Assembly (NCBI GenBank): GCA_003345555.1
Contig: PRDJ01000042.1
Span: 44,678 to 76,677, forward strand
Origin: Candidatus Thorarchaeota archaeon
Lineage (GTDB): Archaea > Asgardarchaeota > Thorarchaeia > Thorarchaeales > Thorarchaeaceae
Length of the DNA: 32,000 nucleotides
Reading direction: 5' to 3'
The notes under the pieces were generated by a model. The model searched no databases, was not told the DNA's origin, and saw only the letters and a program-made list of their open reading frames with translations. The position numbers were made by a program, and so were the translations under genes. Shown in pieces: positions 8,577-21,316 of the stretch (its first letter is position 1; every line of letters starts with the position of its first letter).

Positions 8577-8604
8577 TAATGCTCTCTCAAAGCACGAGCC
8601 GCGG
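8577..8604. repeat. Direct repeat, left copy (TAATGCTCTCTCAAAGCACGAGCCGCGG)
   Basis: Shares an exact 13-bp core AAAGCACGAGCCG (8589-8601) with 8974-8986, and 26 of 28 nt align with one 2-nt indel. Confidence 0.8.
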
Positions 8605-8781: not shown

Positions 8782-8959
8782 CAAACCTCAAACGCAACAT
8801 ACAACTATAAAACAGCACGGATATGAGACCTTGGGGAACTTATAAGGAAATATTCCTTAGAGTATTCTGTTGGCACGAGTGATATAGGAGGGGGAATAAC
8901 AAGACCCCCTATCTTGTGATTTCTAATTCCTTTCCTCTGAAGAATTCCAAGAGGCTCAA

Positions 8960-8989
8960 TAATACTCTCTCTTAAAGCACGAGCCGTGG
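8960..8989. repeat. Direct repeat, right copy (TAATACTCTCTCTTAAAGCACGAGCCGTGG)
   Basis: Second copy of the 8577-8604 repeat, about 385 bp downstream. Confidence 0.8.
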
Positions 8990-9043
8990 CAACGTGTAAT
9001 GGCCCAGCGACACTCATATCAACTCAAGAAGAGGTCCTAGGTA

Positions 9044-9781
9044 ATGGACGAACCACTGCAATCCGCGCTCTACGCATCAATCGCTACACTGGACCAGCTC
9101 AAGAAAATGTACGACATGGGCGTTGTTGATGTCAGGTCGTATGAAAGGGAGTCTGAAGCGCTAATAACAGAGGTTCGGAATTGCATCGAACAGATGCGGA
9201 GAACCGGTCTTGACGTTGGGAACTTCGTGGGTCAGGCCCGGATATCGGAGTCGTTTCCCGAAGCGTCGAACATGCTGGGGCTGTACGGACGAGACACGCG
9301 GCAGCCAGGTATAGGGATGACAACTGATCAGTACTTCGACTACATCGGACTTGCCGTCTTAGATGTGGCTACCGCGAATTCCTCGAAAGGGCTGATGGGA
9401 CTTGCGGAACTCATTGTCGAGGTCGTGCGCCTGCTGCCAGAGCTCAAGTCTGTCAGCTACAATGACGTGATCGAGGCAGTGAACCGCGTGTCTCAACATG
9501 GATTGATACCGGGCATTCGGACGCTTAGGGGCGGAGTCAAAGTTGTGGAACTGCGTCCGTTAGAGCTGCGTCGTGACCAAGCAGATGTAATCAATGCTGC
9601 CGCCACCAAGGGGTACGTTTCCATTGAAGAGCTCATGATGCAGCTCAAGTGGTCAGAGGACCATGCACGTCAAGTTCTCTCCAGTCTGGTCGATGCTGGC
9701 ATGGCAGTGGCAGACATACGGTTCTCGACGGGTGGCCGCTATTACTTCCCGGGTTTAAGACCTAGAGATAGTACAGTGTAG
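9044..9781 (+). CDS. ESCRT-I/II hybrid: Vps28-like N-terminal domain fused to the Vps22/36 (EAP30) tandem winged-helix region
   Basis: The N-terminus LYASIATLDQLKKMYDMGVVDVRSYERESEALI...NF...RI...FPEA parallels the Vps28 N-domain. The C-terminus YFDYIGLAVLDV..GLMGLAEL..VSYNDVIEAV..ELRRDQADVI..GYVSIEEL...LKWSEDHARQVL...GMAVAD...YYFPGL parallels SNF8/Vps22. Confidence 0.85.
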   Translation: MDEPLQSALYASIATLDQLKKMYDMGVVDVRSYERESEALITEVRNCIEQMRRTGLDVGNFVGQARISESFPEASNMLGLYGRDTRQPGIGMTTDQYFDYIGLAVLDVATANSSKGLMGLAELIVEVVRLLPELKSVSYNDVIEAVNRVSQHGLIPGIRTLRGGVKVVELRPLELRRDQADVINAAATKGYVSIEELMMQLKWSEDHARQVLSSLVDAGMAVADIRFSTGGRYYFPGLRPRDSTV

Positions 9782-9829
9782 AGGACTGTATTCGCTGTTG
9801 GCATTCGGGCTATGACAGGTCACATTGGA

Positions 9830-10543
9830 TCAGACCACTGCTAGTATTGCGCCTTTCTTCGAGTCAACCCATTTTGCCAATCCTTTGTCAACCATTATCT
9901 GCATGATTCGATGCAAGTCTCTTTCAGGGAGCTTCGAGAAGTCTTGGCCGGATTCCTGCACGACAATTGACTGCACATCTAGGCGCAGTTTTCCTGTCTT
10001 TATTGCCCAACGGTATATGATGTCACCCCATTCCTCGAGGGGTCGCCAGTAGACTCGAAGCTGTCTTTTCTTCTCGTCGAGCCATTCTCCAACGTCCTTC
10101 TTGACCAATGATTCACCTATGAATCTGAAGGCGTCGACCTTTCCAAGGATGTCACTGAACGGTTTCTCCTTCACGAAGGTTGACACTGAAAGAACATGTA
10201 TGCTTTTGAACTCGGTCCAAATCATAAGATAGTCTGACCACTCTTCCGCCCACATTTCTATGTCTTTTTCTGCAGGTGGAATATGATACATCCATTCAGC
10301 TTGGTTTACGTTTCCCCACTGCGGGGCCGGGAGCTCTAGGACCTGTGAGGGCGCAGACTCAGGGACGATTTCAGTCTGAATCGACTCGAGCTCCTGAGTC
10401 TGCGAATCCTCTTCAGCTTCAGTTTCGGTAACATCGACAAGAGTGTCGGTCTTAGGTGTCTCTTTGCCAACAGAAGCATCAGACGTTGGTTTGGGGGTTG
10501 GCTTCTGTCGCTCCTTTTCTTTCCGGCGTTCCTTCACTTCCAA
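9830..10543 (-). CDS. vps25: ESCRT-II subunit Vps25 with a charged, disordered N-terminal extension
   Basis: WAEEWSDYLMIW, GEWLDEKKRQLRVYWRPLEEWGDIIYRWAIKTG and FSKLPERDLHRIMQIMVDKGLAKW match the Vps25 winged helices. The TTG start is 3 nt after the vps4 stop. Confidence 0.86.
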   Translation of the reverse strand: MEVKERRKEKERQKPTPKPTSDASVGKETPKTDTLVDVTETEAEEDSQTQELESIQTEIVPESAPSQVLELPAPQWGNVNQAEWMYHIPPAEKDIEMWAEEWSDYLMIWTEFKSIHVLSVSTFVKEKPFSDILGKVDAFRFIGESLVKKDVGEWLDEKKRQLRVYWRPLEEWGDIIYRWAIKTGKLRLDVQSIVVQESGQDFSKLPERDLHRIMQIMVDKGLAKWVDSKKGAILAVV

Positions 10544-10546
10544 TCC

Positions 10547-11776
10547 CTAAGACGCCTCCCCCCATTCGATATACTTCCTTACGTCTTCTGGAGTTGTACC
10601 GGGTCCAATGTTCTCAATAGCCCGCAGAAAGTCGTCCCGTGAGACGGGCCGTAGTTCGAGTCGTGCGCGGTCGCTATCGAGCTTTCCCACGCGCTGTAGG
10701 TCTCTTATTGGTTCCATCGCGGCTTCCCGACATACCACACTAATATCCCGGCCACTATAACCGTCGGTCAAATCAGCAAGTTCTCCGAAGTCGACTTCCG
10801 GGGACAGTTCAATGTCTTCCATGTGAATCTCGAATATCTTTCTCCGTGAGGTTTTCCTTGGCAAGGGGATGTGAATCTTCTTCTCAAATCTTGATCGAAG
10901 AGCGAAGTCCAGTTCCCATGGAAGATTGGTAGCACCGATTACAGTAACCCTATCATCGGGATGAGTCGCCAATCCCTGCAGCTCAGTCAATAGCTGAGTC
11001 TTGAGTCGTCTCTCCCCGCCAACATCATGTCCCGTTCTTGAGATTCCAACAGAATCAAGCTCATCCATGAAGATAACGGAGGGCTGACTCCTCCTCGCCA
11101 TTTCAAAGAGGGTCATGACGAGCTTCTCTGACTCGCCGAGCCACTTGCTGACGATATTTGCGGCTGAGACATTGAAGAACGTTGCATGCACTTCAGAGGC
11201 CACAGCCTTTGCTATGAGAGTCTTACCACATCCTGATGGTCCATAGAACAGAATGCCCTTCCAGGGCTGCCTCGATTTTCCCTTGAAGAGTTCAGGATGT
11301 TTCATTGGAGACACAATGGCTTCTTGAATTACCTGCTTTGCATCGTCCAATCCTGCAACCTCGGACATTTTCAAATCCGGTCGTTCAGTAAGAATCGTGT
11401 CAGCAATCATATCCTGAAGGTGTCTCATGTCTTCGTTGTCGTCGCCTGTTTCCGAAGTCCTTCCGGATGGCAGTGATGGCTCTCCCCTGTCTATAGAAAA
11501 TGTGGCGGGAATACTTGGAATCGTCGGTCGTTCCGCTTGCCTTGTCTTAAGGCCTGAGATGTATCTTACCCGATCTACACACTCTTGGGCCCTGCTCAGG
11601 TAGTGCTTCTGCAAAGATGGAAGGGATGAGGAATTCGAGAGCTTGATGAGTATCATGCTTGCCTTTAGATAGTCACTACAAGCCTCTTTCTGGAGTCCTC
11701 TCCTGTCCAAATCTATTGCCTTTTCGAGCAAAGCCTTGACTCCAAGGTCGAGGCGGTCAGCGTCTGTTCCTGACAT
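10547..11776 (-). CDS. vps4: Vps4-type AAA+ ATPase with an N-terminal MIT domain
   Basis: MIT (LEKAIDLD...Y..A), Walker A GPSGCGKT, pore loop KWLGESEK, Walker B IFMDELD and GATNLPWELD. It lacks the eukaryotic beta-domain insertion and sits in an ESCRT locus. Confidence 0.93.
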   Translation of the reverse strand: MSGTDADRLDLGVKALLEKAIDLDRRGLQKEACSDYLKASMILIKLSNSSSLPSLQKHYLSRAQECVDRVRYISGLKTRQAERPTIPSIPATFSIDRGEPSLPSGRTSETGDDNEDMRHLQDMIADTILTERPDLKMSEVAGLDDAKQVIQEAIVSPMKHPELFKGKSRQPWKGILFYGPSGCGKTLIAKAVASEVHATFFNVSAANIVSKWLGESEKLVMTLFEMARRSQPSVIFMDELDSVGISRTGHDVGGERRLKTQLLTELQGLATHPDDRVTVIGATNLPWELDFALRSRFEKKIHIPLPRKTSRRKIFEIHMEDIELSPEVDFGELADLTDGYSGRDISVVCREAAMEPIRDLQRVGKLDSDRARLELRPVSRDDFLRAIENIGPGTTPEDVRKYIEWGEAS

Positions 11777-11965
11777 TCAAGGTCGCCAGTCAAGTGCGCT
11801 TGAATGGTTAAGAGTTTCTGTGTTTCGTAGCGCGATACTCCTTCAGTTGTCCTGCCCGCCAGAAAGGCACGTTTGTTACGAAGGCTTAAAGGCGGAGGTC
11901 TCGCACAACCCACAGAAGTTCATCATCAGGACATGGTGAGGTCGTTGGGTACATTCAGGAAGGCT

Positions 11966-12559
11966 ATGACTTGGGGTCGCAAGAAGCCGGACGTTGCAGA
12001 GGTAACCAGTCAGCTTAGAATCCTAGGCAAAGAGCTCGAGCGAGAGAGAAACAGGCTCGAGAAGGAAGAGACTGAGACCAAGGCTCGAGCGGTGCGGGCT
12101 CGGAAAGAGGGCCATGTCGACGCCTACAAGACCTACGCAGTAGAGATGATCCGGTTCAGGAAGTATGCTTTGTCTGTCGACAAATCGCGGCTTCACCTAC
12201 TGAGGGTACTCGGCCATATCGTTCATGCTCAGTCGGCCGCTAAGACGAGCTTGGCAGTAGAAAAGGTCGCCAAGATTCTCGGGATACTAGGTGATGCAAA
12301 AGACCCAACAAAGGTTGTTCGGAGTCTTGATGAGATTACTCGAAGACTGGACGCAATGGAAATCGAAAGCGGGATTTCTGACGAAGCCTTTGACTCTATG
12401 AAAGACAGCAAGGTGACGTCAGAAGAGCTGGCCGCAGCACTGCAGGAGATTGATGCCGAGGCTGGGGCTGCAAAGGTCGTCTCGCGGGCCGGTCCAGCTA
12501 CAGAGGCTGAGAAACTCGAAGAAGAGATCAAGTTGCTAGAGAAGGAACTTGGTGTCTAG
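11966..12559 (+). CDS. ESCRT-III (Snf7 family), Vps2/24/46 class
   Basis: Basic N-terminus, AYKTYAVEMIRFRK and the LDAMEIESGISDEAFD pattern of the CHMP1-3 class, plus an amphipathic C-terminal helix. Start moved to ATG 11966 after an SD-like AGGAAGG. Confidence 0.88.
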   Translation: MTWGRKKPDVAEVTSQLRILGKELERERNRLEKEETETKARAVRARKEGHVDAYKTYAVEMIRFRKYALSVDKSRLHLLRVLGHIVHAQSAAKTSLAVEKVAKILGILGDAKDPTKVVRSLDEITRRLDAMEIESGISDEAFDSMKDSKVTSEELAAALQEIDAEAGAAKVVSRAGPATEAEKLEEEIKLLEKELGV

Positions 12560-12560
12560 A

Positions 12561-14201
12561 CTAGCGCCCAAAGACCTGACGATTCCCAGAAGCCGTTTCT
12601 AGTCTTTTTCTCGTTTCAAATGAATCTCGCATGAGTCCCTTGTATCTCCTGATGAAATCCTCTGGGACCAGCTGACCGTTCCTCAATAGACGAACCGTTT
12701 CTCTAGCGGCATCCTCAATCGTTATCGCGTCTCTTCTGAGTCCCATTGTTTCTGCAGAGTCGGGAACCGGAGAAGGCATGCCACCTGCACCGAACAAGCC
12801 GCCGAGGTCTCGGCCGAGTCTGTCGTGATACTGCAAAGGAGCTGTGCGGGCTCCGTTGTCAGATGCGTTTCCGAATGGATAGTACGAAGCCGATCGCCGG
12901 TCGTATGGTCCGTATCCAGCAGATGCTTGTGTCCCGATGTCAGCTTTTCCACCTGAACACATGAGCGAGTAGGCGAGTTCTTCTACCTTGAGCCTGACAT
13001 CGCTAATGCTCACGTCGGTCTGTCCGAGCTTTCTCGTTCGCTGAAGGTCTGACTGCATATACTTGTCGAATTTTCTGGCGATTTCTACATAATCTGGCAG
13101 AACACTCTCTGTCTGATCGCTGCAAGTTATCTTGATATCGCCCTGCTTCATTCTCAGGACTGTTCTCTTTCTCAGCCTGCCATCCTCTTCTAAACCCTTC
13201 ATGTAAGCAAGGGGTATATCGAAGACTATGTCGGTTTTCTTTCGGAGTCTTCCGGTTTCAGCAATAAAGACGAGCCTCTTGTTGGTTATGTACAAGGTGC
13301 CAGTGGCCTTGTCATTCTTCACGAAGTCACTGCCTGCGATTCTGATGTCGGGTAACGCACAGACTGGCAGTTCGTTTACAGACAGTTCTGCAGTCTCATA
13401 GAACCCCGCGAATTGCTTCCTATAGTAGTCCAGTCCGTCCAGCTGCTGTTCGATATCTACTAATGTCAGCCTCGCCTCTTCGATTGCGTCATCAATATTC
13501 TTCCGGTATTGACCCACAAGATGGGTGACACGATTCGTTACTCCGCCTACAAAGGGGAACTGATCGGCAGACCATGCGCTGGAATCGAGGAGCCCCTTGG
13601 TCTCAGCAGCCATTTGCCTCGAGACTATCTCCGCTTGGCTTGTCACTCTGTTCTTGATGGCAGGGATCTCCATCTCGATGTTCTCAATCTTCTCTTCCAG
13701 CCAGCGATAGTGAAGGAAATTCGCCATCCTGAGAGAAACAAGAAGCCTCTTGGCTGACATCAGCTGGTTGGTGAAATCGCGCAGGCGTGTGTATCCATAG
13801 TGGAGTGTGATTATGGCATGACGCAGGTCTTGAGCCAGCACCTTTCTTTTGTCCTCTACAGACACCGTGTGTGTGGAATGGCACCTGGGACAGATTTCTT
13901 CGATTCGCTTCCCAGCACTCAGCTCTCGAGAGCCGCATTCCGGGCATTTCTCGAACTTCTGCCCTGGGGCGGGAGTGCCAAGGCCGTGGTGGCAATTACT
14001 GCATACAATGTGCTCGCTTGACTTGGTCTCAAGGCATTCCAAGCACAATACCTCTCCGCAATCCTCACAAAGATGCGTGGCTCTATTGCTCTTGCAGACT
14101 TTACAGAGCTGGGTAGAGGATTCGTTACTCAACTGGGTGCCTCCGAACATCTGGGCTTGCATATTGTACTGAGGAGTCATGGATAATTGGCTATGTATCA
14201 C
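12561..14201 (-). CDS. Multidomain ESCRT-I-like protein: B-box/Zn ribbons, coiled coil, PH-like (GRAM/GLUE) domain, low-complexity linker, Vps23/37 steadiness-box hairpin
   Basis: Six CxxC pairs at the N-terminus, a heptad-rich middle, GTLYITNKRLVF, and C-terminal IEDAARETVRLLRNGQLVPEDFIRRYKGLMRDSFETR. The true start may be one of the downstream Met codons. Confidence 0.75.
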   Translation of the reverse strand: MIHSQLSMTPQYNMQAQMFGGTQLSNESSTQLCKVCKSNRATHLCEDCGEVLCLECLETKSSEHIVCSNCHHGLGTPAPGQKFEKCPECGSRELSAGKRIEEICPRCHSTHTVSVEDKRKVLAQDLRHAIITLHYGYTRLRDFTNQLMSAKRLLVSLRMANFLHYRWLEEKIENIEMEIPAIKNRVTSQAEIVSRQMAAETKGLLDSSAWSADQFPFVGGVTNRVTHLVGQYRKNIDDAIEEARLTLVDIEQQLDGLDYYRKQFAGFYETAELSVNELPVCALPDIRIAGSDFVKNDKATGTLYITNKRLVFIAETGRLRKKTDIVFDIPLAYMKGLEEDGRLRKRTVLRMKQGDIKITCSDQTESVLPDYVEIARKFDKYMQSDLQRTRKLGQTDVSISDVRLKVEELAYSLMCSGGKADIGTQASAGYGPYDRRSASYYPFGNASDNGARTAPLQYHDRLGRDLGGLFGAGGMPSPVPDSAETMGLRRDAITIEDAARETVRLLRNGQLVPEDFIRRYKGLMRDSFETRKRLETASGNRQVFGR

Positions 14202-20482: not shown

Positions 20483-21316
20483 ATGTCAGACCGCCTTTCC
20501 ATTCACGGCATCTGGTTAATTGAACGCCATACGGGTAGGAATCTGATAGCCCGGGCGTATACCGGTGTCTCCATCGATATGGACTTGATCGCACCATTTC
20601 TGTCAGCGACTCACACTTTCATAAACCGCGCAGCGAACGAGACTCTGAGAACAATCGACACTGATACACATAGGTACGTGTGGGCTGCAAATGATGAGCT
20701 GTTGTTTGTGATGGTAATATCCAAGGGCGCACGCACAGGACACATGCGGTTCCTTCTCGATTATGCACTGAATGAGTTCATGCACAACGAAGTCCCTGAG
20801 GGAATGGACCTGCCCACCTTCTTGAAACAATGGGAAGGAAACCCAGTGAGCTTCGAGCGGTTCGCCAGATTCGTGGATGAGCTGGTCTCTCAGTATGAAC
20901 AATCAGGCGATAGTCTCGTGGCCGGAAAGACGATGGACTGTCTTGAGGTGCACAATCATATCTTCAGGGCACTAATGGAAGTAAAGGTCGACAAGAGGAC
21001 CCGCAAGAAGATGGTTGAGGAAATCAAAGCACGACTTCGGCCGCTTGTAGAAACACACCCCTTCTTGGCTGTGGTGCCTGTGGATGATGCAGGCATTGAA
21101 GTTCTCAACATTGACGTATACAGTGTGGAGTACAAAGCCCTCCGAAGCGCGCTGGAGAGCGTGTTCCAGGTGGTCGCCGAGGTGATAAGGAACGTTGCGG
21201 GTGAGGAACCGTATCGGAACATGATCTTCGACCATGCAATGCCCTATGTCAAGAACGACATCGAACGCCTCCAGACCTATGCGATTCTCGACGATATTGT
21301 ACGATACCTATTCTAA
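20483..21316 (+). CDS. Longin-like domain protein with a C-terminal helical domain
   Basis: IHGIWLIERHTGRNLIARAY, DLIAPFLSATHTF, the RYVW..NDELLFVMVISK strands and the FARFVDELV helix give the beta-beta-alpha-beta-beta-beta-alpha-alpha longin pattern. Confidence 0.7.
   Translation: MSDRLSIHGIWLIERHTGRNLIARAYTGVSIDMDLIAPFLSATHTFINRAANETLRTIDTDTHRYVWAANDELLFVMVISKGARTGHMRFLLDYALNEFMHNEVPEGMDLPTFLKQWEGNPVSFERFARFVDELVSQYEQSGDSLVAGKTMDCLEVHNHIFRALMEVKVDKRTRKKMVEEIKARLRPLVETHPFLAVVPVDDAGIEVLNIDVYSVEYKALRSALESVFQVVAEVIRNVAGEEPYRNMIFDHAMPYVKNDIERLQTYAILDDIVRYLF

Follow-up and report, generated by a model that had tools for sequence, protein, structure and literature searches.

The 32,000-nucleotide stretch of thorarchaeal DNA analysed here (the window) holds a cluster of five ESCRT genes that is a conserved thorarchaeial gene set for membrane remodelling, and whose Vps22-like product, judged by its sequence, is a chimera carrying a Vps28-type hairpin domain in front of two winged helices. 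On balance, the cluster probably encodes a system in which the steadiness-box (SB) hairpin of a second protein pairs with the Vps28-like hairpin of this fusion, the PH and Zn modules of the SB protein become tethered to the winged helices, and Vps25, ESCRT-III and Vps4 act downstream. The five genes, in mixed orientation, are those named in a first-pass annotation made from the letters alone, with positions, strands and identities all correct (Table 1). They are flanked by housekeeping genes, one for an Asp/Asn-tRNA synthetase upstream and one for TldD/PmbA downstream, and thus form a discrete five-gene unit, whose spacing, as followed by locus tags, recurs across many Thorarchaeota records.

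Table 1. Features of the ESCRT cluster, in window coordinates.
Feature	Position	Strand	Evidence and remarks
Vps28-N/Vps22 fusion, 245 aa	9044..9781	+	Pfam EAP30 and VPS28; orthologue of ThorAB25_09030 'Vps22'
Vps28 N-terminal domain, fusion residues 1-84	9044..9295	+	hairpin H3-24/H30-54 plus short helices
Vps22 tandem winged-helix core, fusion residues 94-240	9323..9763	+	hhalign, Pfam EAP30
Vps25 (ESCRT-II), 237 aa	9830..10543	-	Pfam ESCRT-II, PDB profile
Vps4 AAA ATPase (MIT, AAA, Vps4_C), 409 aa	10547..11776	-	Pfam, NCBIfam
ESCRT-III, ESCRT-IIIA class, 208 aa	11933..12559	+	Pfam Snf7; orthologue of ThorAB25_09000
Znr_CC_PH_SB protein, 533 aa	12561..14162	-	homologues, AF2; orthologue of ThorAB25_08990 'SB'
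Three Zn-ribbon/B-box-like modules of SB protein	13860..14105	-	six CxxC/CxxH pairs
Three long helices (coiled-coil/helical bundle) of SB protein	13410..13859	-	AF2
PH domain, GRAM/GLUE type, of SB protein	13074..13367	-	Foldseek, weak Pfam GRAM
Steadiness-box hairpin, residues 470-526 (533-aa numbering)	12585..12755	-	AF2, weak Vps23-core profile matches

The locus is real and largely known, its architectures having been published (Makarova et al. 2024, PMC10936438) and its ThorAB25 orthologues examined in a reciprocal yeast two-hybrid (Y2H) screen (Hatano et al. 2022, PMC9192718). The thorarchaeote AB25, which represents a different MAG or genus from the genome of the window, carries the same five genes in identical order and with clearly orthologous sequences (ThorAB25_08990-09030), labelled SB, ESCRT3A, Vps4, Vps25 and Vps22. 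The fusion is there called simply 'Vps22', and its Vps28-N domain is not singled out in the accessible part of that paper. This wiring is no novelty: both the SB-bearing Vps22 and Znr_CC_PH_SB appear in Makarova et al., and a Y2H interaction between the Lokiarchaeal SB protein and Vps22 was reported by Hatano et al.

Evidence for the chimeric character of the fusion comes from both of its halves. Pfam recognises EAP30 at residues 92-224 (5.3e-13) and VPS28 at residues 7-64 (0.0026), PDB profiles return SNF8 (1e-19) and the yeast Vps28 core (0.08-0.14), and the AF2 model, with a mean pLDDT of 82, also leads to SNF8 by Foldseek (9e-9). Residues 1-84 align with Asgard Vps28 by hhalign (97.9%, E 3.8e-13, 92 columns, 32% identity), the Pfam-verified Vps28 proteins P0380 and P0389 match residues 5-84 at library-wide values of 2e-5 and 4.8e-5, respectively, and a Vps28 query run by phmmer against the genome of the window reaches the N-terminus at 1.3e-10. 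The winged-helix part aligns with canonical Asgard Vps22 (hhalign 99.9%, E 5.6e-37), confirming the proposed fusion of a Vps28-type N-terminal core hairpin domain to two tandem winged helices of the Vps22/EAP30 type. Ahead of the first winged helix, neither Pfam nor hhalign finds the N-terminal helical domain typical of Vps22: the match to the EAP30 profile is confined to positions 83-218 of 219, whereas canonical Asgard Vps22 matches from position 1-4, and canonical Asgard Vps22 aligns by hhalign from fusion residue 42 onwards, leaving residues 1-41 unaligned. The four-helix bundle of the Vps28 C-terminus is likewise absent, the winged helices following directly on the N-domain. By these comparisons, the Vps28 hairpin domain occupies the place of the canonical Vps22 N-terminal helices. 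Asgard Vps22 with an SB-like N-terminus has been described as cog.002769 (PMC10936438), an idea shared with the present fusion; however, that group takes in canonical Heimdall Vps22, while the N-domain found here is specifically Vps28-N-like and restricted to the thorarchaeial order.

The SB-protein reading frame extends over 12561-14201 (-) and 546 aa, but a database protein 99% identical to it begins 13 residues further in, which puts the start at 14162 and the length at 533 aa. Its AF2 model (mean pLDDT 78.5) places, in order, Zn ribbons, three long helices (102-146, 153-188 and 199-251 in the 533-aa numbering), a PH domain, a disordered linker of ~60 residues and a C-terminal helical hairpin with pLDDT >90. 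This succession of Zn ribbons, coiled coil, PH and C-terminal SB is that of asCOG cog.011556 (Znr_CC_PH_SB), the family to which the protein belongs by description and which, as Znr_PH_CC_SB, was suggested to be an ESCRT-I component (PMC10936438). The Cys columns of the Zn modules are conserved among homologues, and the region gives weak FYVE/RING profile matches, with a Pfam B-box on some orthologues. The modelled PH fold is GRAM/GLUE-like, as indicated by Foldseek matches to the EAP45/Vps36 GLUE domain (2hth_B, 4.4e-4; 2dx5_A, TM 0.65) and the MTMR2 PH-GRAM domain (rmsd 3.4-3.7) and by a weak Pfam GRAM match, which bears out the placement of a PH/GLUE-like module on the ESCRT-I-side chain. 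Membrane association, predicted for this domain in PMC10936438, would likewise apply here. Pfam finds no UEV domain, and neither Pfam nor AF2 finds winged helices, so that the Vps36 layout, with GLUE/PH and tandem winged helices on one chain, is not that of the SB protein. The hairpin family carries the SB annotation in PMC9192718 and PMC10936438. The assignment of this hairpin to the Vps23 type is tentative, as the matches to the yeast Vps23 core that consistently fall on it are weak (2p22_A 0.098, 2f66_A 0.29, 2caz_A 0.53; Pfam Vps23_core 0.6).

A single complex model of both hairpins gave an ipSAE of 0.72 (runs 0.65, 0.72 and 0.74), the best of 3 controls giving 0.00; among solved complexes 58 of 80 attain the mark used, and among mismatched pairs 2 of 110. 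Runs share at least 96% of their contacts, partner pLDDT is at least 75, and the alignments were unpaired and drawn from Thorarchaeota sequences only. Helix packs to helix at the modelled interface, whose residues are more conserved than the remainder of the hairpin on one partner (entropy 0.70 vs 1.23, p 0.03) and on the other (1.0 vs 1.83, p 0.0009), a significance that may be overstated, the test being built on related sequences. The favourable model may also partly reflect memory of the solved yeast ESCRT-I cores (2F66, 2CAZ, 2P22) rather than binding. The hairpin pairing proposed in the first-pass annotation is thus recovered as a predicted interface, and the SB hairpin most likely packs against the Vps28-like hairpin in the manner of the eukaryotic ESCRT-I headpiece. 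That headpiece consists of three hairpins, a count that leaves room for a possible third partner here.

Distribution was surveyed in 151 Asgard genomes from 27 Asgard families. The full-length fusion occurs in two of these families only (f1 and f2), both of the window's own order. In 24 of the 26 f1 genomes its gene lies on the same contig as that of the SB protein and within ~5 kb of it; in f2 the two genes are on different contigs. Relatives of the SB protein are found in 107 of the 151 genomes. A small SB-like ORF is also present at C57:3107-3445. The 93%-complete genome of the window yielded no free Vps28 or Vps28 C-domain (Pfam VPS28 and two Asgard Vps28 queries), no UEV, no ubiquitin and no Vps5-BAR, absences that are provisional at this completeness. 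The lack of a detected Vps28 C-domain, UEV or ubiquitin fits the covalent ESCRT-I-to-II link that had been proposed.

In the preferred reading, docking of the Vps23-like SB hairpin on the Vps28-like hairpin would attach the PH/Zn module, which may sense membrane or cargo, directly to the winged helices. These would bind Vps25, as family knowledge, the adjacent vps25 gene and the published orthologue Y2H data suggest; Vps25 would nucleate ESCRT-III, a recruitment proposed on the same family and Y2H grounds, and Vps4 would recycle it. The yeast headpiece formed by Vps23, Vps28 and Vps37 (2F66, 2CAZ, 2P22) offers a close parallel, with hairpins side by side, like the helix-to-helix packing predicted here, and with Vps28-N and Vps23-core profiles that match the window proteins at corresponding positions. 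By contrast, only two hairpin types are identified in the present system, which lacks UEV, Vps37, Mvb12 and the Vps28 C-domain, joins Vps28-N covalently to ESCRT-II winged helices, and has its SB preceded by a disordered linker instead of a stalk helix. Eukaryotic ESCRT-II (Vps22, Vps36 and two Vps25; 3CUQ, 1U5T) shares its tandem winged helices with the fusion and Vps25, and its GLUE-like PH fold is also present, although on the SB-bearing chain and not on a winged-helix subunit. Another Asgard one-chain fusion of ESCRT-I parts, the heimdallarchaeal UEV-Vps23-Vps28 protein HeimAB125_14070, has a Vps28-N segment resembling that of the fusion, but does not reach beyond ESCRT-I and has retained both UEV and the C-domain of Vps28, whereas the present fusion bridges ESCRT-I and ESCRT-II without either.

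A scaffold of two proteins, as first proposed, is made doubtful by a second complete Vps22 core in the same genome, contained in the 798-aa protein P0429. It is possible, if on the doubtful side, that fusion and P0429 form the ESCRT-II stalk as a heterodimer, the fusion providing a Vps36-like link to ESCRT-I within a scaffold of at least three proteins. Residues 570-783 of P0429 match residues 30-240 of human SNF8 at 2.2e-9, N-helical part included, its orthologues (about 780-857 aa) are confined to f1 and f2 like the fusion, and for MK-D1 a Vps36-like paralogue has been reported whose N-domain is divergent (10.1101/2025.11.01.685982). P0429 may thus be part of the stalk; nonetheless, its gene lies on a separate contig amid unrelated neighbours, and no family is recognised for its N-terminal 570 residues. 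Such a heterodimer is compatible with the hairpin pairing. As a tentative extension, likewise on the doubtful side, the thorarchaeial order might have rebuilt ESCRT-I and ESCRT-II as one ubiquitin-independent supercomplex, in which (i) the Vps28 N-domain would have displaced the Vps22 N-helices to create the covalent link, (ii) the Zn/CC/PH/SB protein, attached by a headpiece-like hairpin contact, would recognise membrane or cargo, and (iii) the lineage-specific ~800-aa Vps22-core protein would be the second, Vps36-like stalk subunit. If true, ESCRT-I/II would exist here in a naturally 'minimal' form, and the headpiece contact would predate, and work without, both the Vps28-CTD/Vps36 bridge and ubiquitin.

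It is rather unlikely that the Vps28-like hairpin mainly homodimerises the fusion, replacing the missing Vps22 N-helices while the SB protein works alone or with a different partner. Thor Vps22 does interact with itself in Y2H (PMC9192718), and the helical domain that supports the stalk in canonical Vps22 is the one replaced, but the heteromeric model clearly separates from its controls, conservation is concentrated on the very surface that the heteromeric model uses as its interface, the gene linkage of both proteins is conserved, and homomeric and heteromeric roles could coexist. Very improbable is an SB protein acting as a TRIM-like B-box/coiled-coil factor outside ESCRT, neighbouring the fusion by mere gene order, since the weak B-box/RING/FYVE-like matches, the weak SB signal (E 0.1-0.6) and the separate contigs in f2 are outweighed by the adjacency in f1, the ESCRT neighbourhoods of this widespread Asgard family (PMC10936438), the confident C-terminal hairpin with its passing complex model, and the Y2H binding of the Lokiarchaeal orthologue to Vps22 (PMC9192718).

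Downstream in the preferred pathway, the clustered ESCRT-III (Pfam Snf7 5.3e-13, with the Snf7 helical core) is an ESCRT-IIIA orthologue and not of the Vps25-binding IIIB class. Vps25 has been reported to interact with ESCRT-IIIB (PMC9192718), so that the proposed feeding of the clustered ESCRT-III by Vps25 is not borne out; ESCRT-IIIB is encoded on another contig, and a second ESCRT-III paralogue of this genome is located at C39:21481-21972. Translation of the clustered gene likely starts at the ATG at 11933, although the frame opens at 11873, a choice made by eye against the N-terminus of ThorAB25_09000 (Hatano Supplementary Data 1). Vps4 combines an MIT domain (0.0018, below its cut-off) with a single AAA domain (9e-39) and Vps4_C (8.5e-5), both above cut-off, and matches NCBIfam CdvC at 4e-76, under the equivalog cut-off. 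Vps25 shows the tandem winged helices of its family (Pfam ESCRT-II/Vps25 5.3e-11; 7pb9, Vps25 tandem WH domains, 2e-29; human VPS25 4.3e-9), carries an acidic N-terminal extension, and its gene begins with TTG 3 nt downstream of the vps4 stop.

Five ORFs in mixed orientation occupy window positions 9044-14201, as the first-pass annotation had described, and the assignment of ESCRT families to them by Pfam confirms that observation (Table). Housekeeping genes flank the cluster on both sides: one for a class II Asp/Asn-tRNA synthetase lies upstream, and a TldD/PmbA pair follows downstream. Within the cluster, the TTG of vps25 comes 3 nt after the vps4 stop. Comparison with its published orthologue indicates the ATG at 11933 as the probable start of ESCRT-III, while the protein with zinc-ribbon, PH and steadiness-box (SB) regions (Znr_CC_PH_SB, hereafter the SB protein) has its probable start at 14162, where a database protein of 99% identity also begins, and is then 533 aa long. 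Every close homologue of the first and last cluster proteins is labelled Thorarchaeota, and in several MAGs their locus tags are five genes apart. The host genome comprises 2.28 Mb in 82 contigs and is 93% complete.

Table. ESCRT-related features of the cluster and of other contigs of the same genome (G000).
Feature	Coordinates	Strand	Matches
245-aa protein (fusion)	window 9044-9781	+	EAP30/Vps22 Pfam 5.3e-13, residues 92-224; VPS28 N-terminal match 0.0026, residues 7-64, sub-threshold
237-aa protein		-	Pfam ESCRT-II/Vps25 5.3e-11
409-aa protein		-	Pfam AAA, AAA-lid, Vps4_C; MIT match weak
228-aa ORF		+	Pfam Snf7 5.3e-13
546-aa ORF (SB protein)	window 12561-14162 (533-aa form)	-	Pfam zinc-ribbon and GRAM/PH matches only, all weak
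Second ESCRT-III	G000:C39:21481-21972; locus L014:1378-2046	-	Snf7 2.3e-14; clear orthologue of ThorAB25_07240 'ESCRT3B'
798-aa protein P0429	G000:C39:63251-65647; locus L018:3252-5648	+	residues 570-783 vs human SNF8 residues 30-240, 2.2e-9
112-aa ORF	G000:C57:3107-3445; locus L016	+	C-terminal hairpin vs SB profile 3.8e-6 (genome ORFs); GvpG weakly

The AF2 model of the first cluster protein (mean pLDDT 82) displays a helical hairpin (H3-24 and H30-54) followed by short helices up to residue 78; two winged helices (94-240) lie beyond a disordered linker (82-88). Foldseek retrieved human and yeast Vps22/SNF8 as its top matches and then Vps36, and a profile of 47 orthologues matched SNF8 over positions 90-241 (1e-19) and four yeast Vps28-core entries over positions 6-57 (0.08-0.14). 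A word-indexed homologue search with residues 1-90 returned Thorarchaeota orthologues only; relatives of the Vps28 type surfaced in an exhaustive representative search, where two proteins, one of them from Jordarchaeales, matched residues 5-84 and 6-75 only (library-wide E 2e-5 and 4.8e-5). Pfam identifies the two as full-length VPS28 proteins (3e-17 and 1.4e-15), and their sole match among all ORFs of the window's genome is the N-terminus of this protein (1.3e-10 and 5.7e-10). In profile-profile comparisons, residues 1-84 align with Asgard Vps28 (probability 97.9%, E 3.8e-13), and canonical Asgard Vps22 aligns from residue 42 (99.9%), with no alignment before it; the EAP30 Pfam model, in turn, covers canonical Asgard Vps22 from the model start and this protein from model position 83. 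Therefore, the protein is a fusion of a Vps28 N-domain with a Vps22 winged-helix core, the former replacing the usual Vps22 N-helices.

In a survey of 151 Asgard genomes from 27 families, only the window's own family and a sister family of the same order match the fusion over its full length, all other families matching no more than the winged-helix part. The Znr_CC_PH family is widespread, being present in 107 of the 151, and in 24 of the 26 genomes of the window's family the fusion and SB-protein genes share a contig at a distance of ~5 kb or less. In one locus of the sister lineage (GCA_053940065.1, JBMXMN010000023.1), the upstream synteny is that of the window, with aminotransferase and Asp/Asn-tRNA synthetase genes followed by those for the fusion, Vps25 and Vps4; two multi-pass membrane proteins, both lacking an SB, precede the fusion gene instead, and neither an ESCRT-III nor a Znr_CC_PH_SB gene was found among its neighbours.

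The architecture of the SB protein is that of Znr_CC_PH_SB in asCOG cog.011556 (PMC10936438). Its AF2 model (mean pLDDT 78.5, 533-aa numbering) comprises zinc-ribbon strands (20-101), three long helices (102-251), a PH domain (266-363), a disordered linker (405-465), and a confident C-terminal hairpin (H470-494 and H500-526). The PH domain resembles the EAP45/Vps36 GLUE domain (2hth_B, 4.4e-4; 2dx5_A, TM 0.65) and also the MTMR2 PH-GRAM domain. For the hairpin, three PDB entries of the yeast Vps23 core (0.098-0.53) and Pfam Vps23_core (0.6) gave matches that are weak, though in the right position. Foldseek matches of the whole model to DH-PH proteins (TM ~0.2, rmsd 15-27 Å) reflect a likeness of helices plus PH only.

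The first-pass annotation had proposed a possible two-protein ESCRT-I/II scaffold, in which the hairpins of both proteins could pair and the winged helices of the fusion would lead to Vps25, ESCRT-III and Vps4. In one controlled complex prediction, fusion residues 1-88 were combined with the 72 residues at the C-terminus of the SB protein, with an alignment for each. The median ipSAE was 0.72 (runs 0.65, 0.72 and 0.74), and the best control out of three scored 0.00; the pair thereby reaches a mark that 58 of 80 solved complexes and 2 of 110 mismatched pairs reach. The runs share at least 96% of contacts, with a partner pLDDT of at least 75. Predicted contacts on the Vps28-like hairpin lie in helix 1 and where helix 2 begins (residues 3-40); on the SB side they lie where helix 1 ends and in helix 2 (residues 490-519, 533-aa form). 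These interface residues are more conserved than the remainder of each hairpin. Since solved yeast ESCRT-I cores look like this pair, the score may come partly from the predictor's memory of those structures, and the model speaks for likeness and plausibility of the hairpin pairing, not for binding. The proposed interpretation is plausible and gains one controlled model that passes, but most of it has been published before.

For the question of how the ubiquitin-ESCRT pathway of eukaryotes arose from simpler components, Asgard ESCRT systems offer the best model at hand, Thorarchaeota being the odd lineage out among them. If the Vps28-like hairpin does dock the SB hairpin, an ESCRT-I headpiece contact could join a membrane/cargo sensor straight to ESCRT-II, and a compact two- or three-protein system would be experimentally tractable for reconstitution.

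The wording of a two-protein scaffold is weakened by P0429, an additional paralogue encoded on contig C39. Its Vps22 core, at residues 570-783, is complete, N-helices included. The 570 N-terminal residues, among them a coiled coil and a segment rich in beta structure, matched no family, and atlas look-ups returned its own cluster only. Orthologues of ~780-857 aa were seen solely in the same two families as the fusion, and P0429 is a candidate for a Vps36-like second stalk subunit. The cluster ESCRT-III also requires correction, as it is the 'ESCRT3A' orthologue, the 'ESCRT3B' orthologue being encoded away from the cluster on C39; because Vps25 was reported by Hatano et al. to interact with ESCRT-IIIB (PMC9192718), the ESCRT-III recruited first is probably not the cluster copy.

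Searches of the window's genome revealed no UEV, ubiquitin, Vps5-BAR or Vps28 C-domain, in agreement with published remarks that Thorarchaeota are without ubiquitin and UEV-Vps23 (PMC9192718; 10.1101/2023.07.25.550441). The 112-aa ORF, which lies beside transporter genes in an unrelated neighbourhood, may supply a third, SB-like hairpin as a free-standing protein, or may be unrelated. Two ORFs with weak VPS28/Vps23_core matches, on C67 (186 aa) and C61 (172 aa), were discarded, showing only weak GvpG-, syntaxin- or Vps23_core-like likeness in unrelated contexts, as was C21:8081-8740, whose weak match to the Vps28 C-region (E 1.2) appeared un-Vps28-like on inspection by eye. A weak EAP30 match at C30:3065-6751 (-) (locus L019) corresponds to an MCM helicase rather than to Vps22; it surfaced solely through its C-terminal winged helix, and an intein with a LAGLIDADG endonuclease is inserted in its gene.

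Both the genes and their architectures have been published before. The yeast two-hybrid constructs of Hatano et al. 2022 include ThorAB25_08990 (SB), 09000 (ESCRT3A), 09010 (Vps4), 09020 (Vps25) and 09030 (Vps22), and self-interaction of Thorarchaeota Vps22 and interaction of the Lokiarchaeal SB protein with Vps22 were reported (PMC9192718). Makarova et al. 2024 described SB fused to Asgard Vps22 proteins and considered that Znr_PH_CC_SB, with its membrane-associated PH domain, is likely to be a component of ESCRT-I (PMC10936438). Within the accessible literature, no explicit statement was found that the N-domain of Thorarchaeota Vps22 is an order-restricted Vps28 N-domain. This identity and restriction are a refinement, not a new system, and the additions made here are a sharper assignment of domains, a survey across lineages and a single controlled prediction of the interface.

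Regarding the surroundings of the cluster, the 478-nt intergenic tract from the tRNA synthetase gene to the fusion gene holds a 23-nt direct repeat (8582-8604 and 8967-8989, 91% identical, 385 nt apart), whose 13-nt core has no other copy in the genome. An Rfam scan of the window, repeat included, gave no match, and sigma-70 promoter and terminator scans remained at chance level, the sigma-70 model not being applicable to archaea. A 70-aa ORF in the same tract (8805-9017), non-helical and matching no family, was ruled out as a free-standing SB. Finally, a 277-aa ORF at 20483-21316 (+) shows a sub-threshold match to a first longin domain of the Fuz/MON1/HPS1 type (1.8e-4), a further eukaryote-signature-like protein close to the ESCRT cluster.
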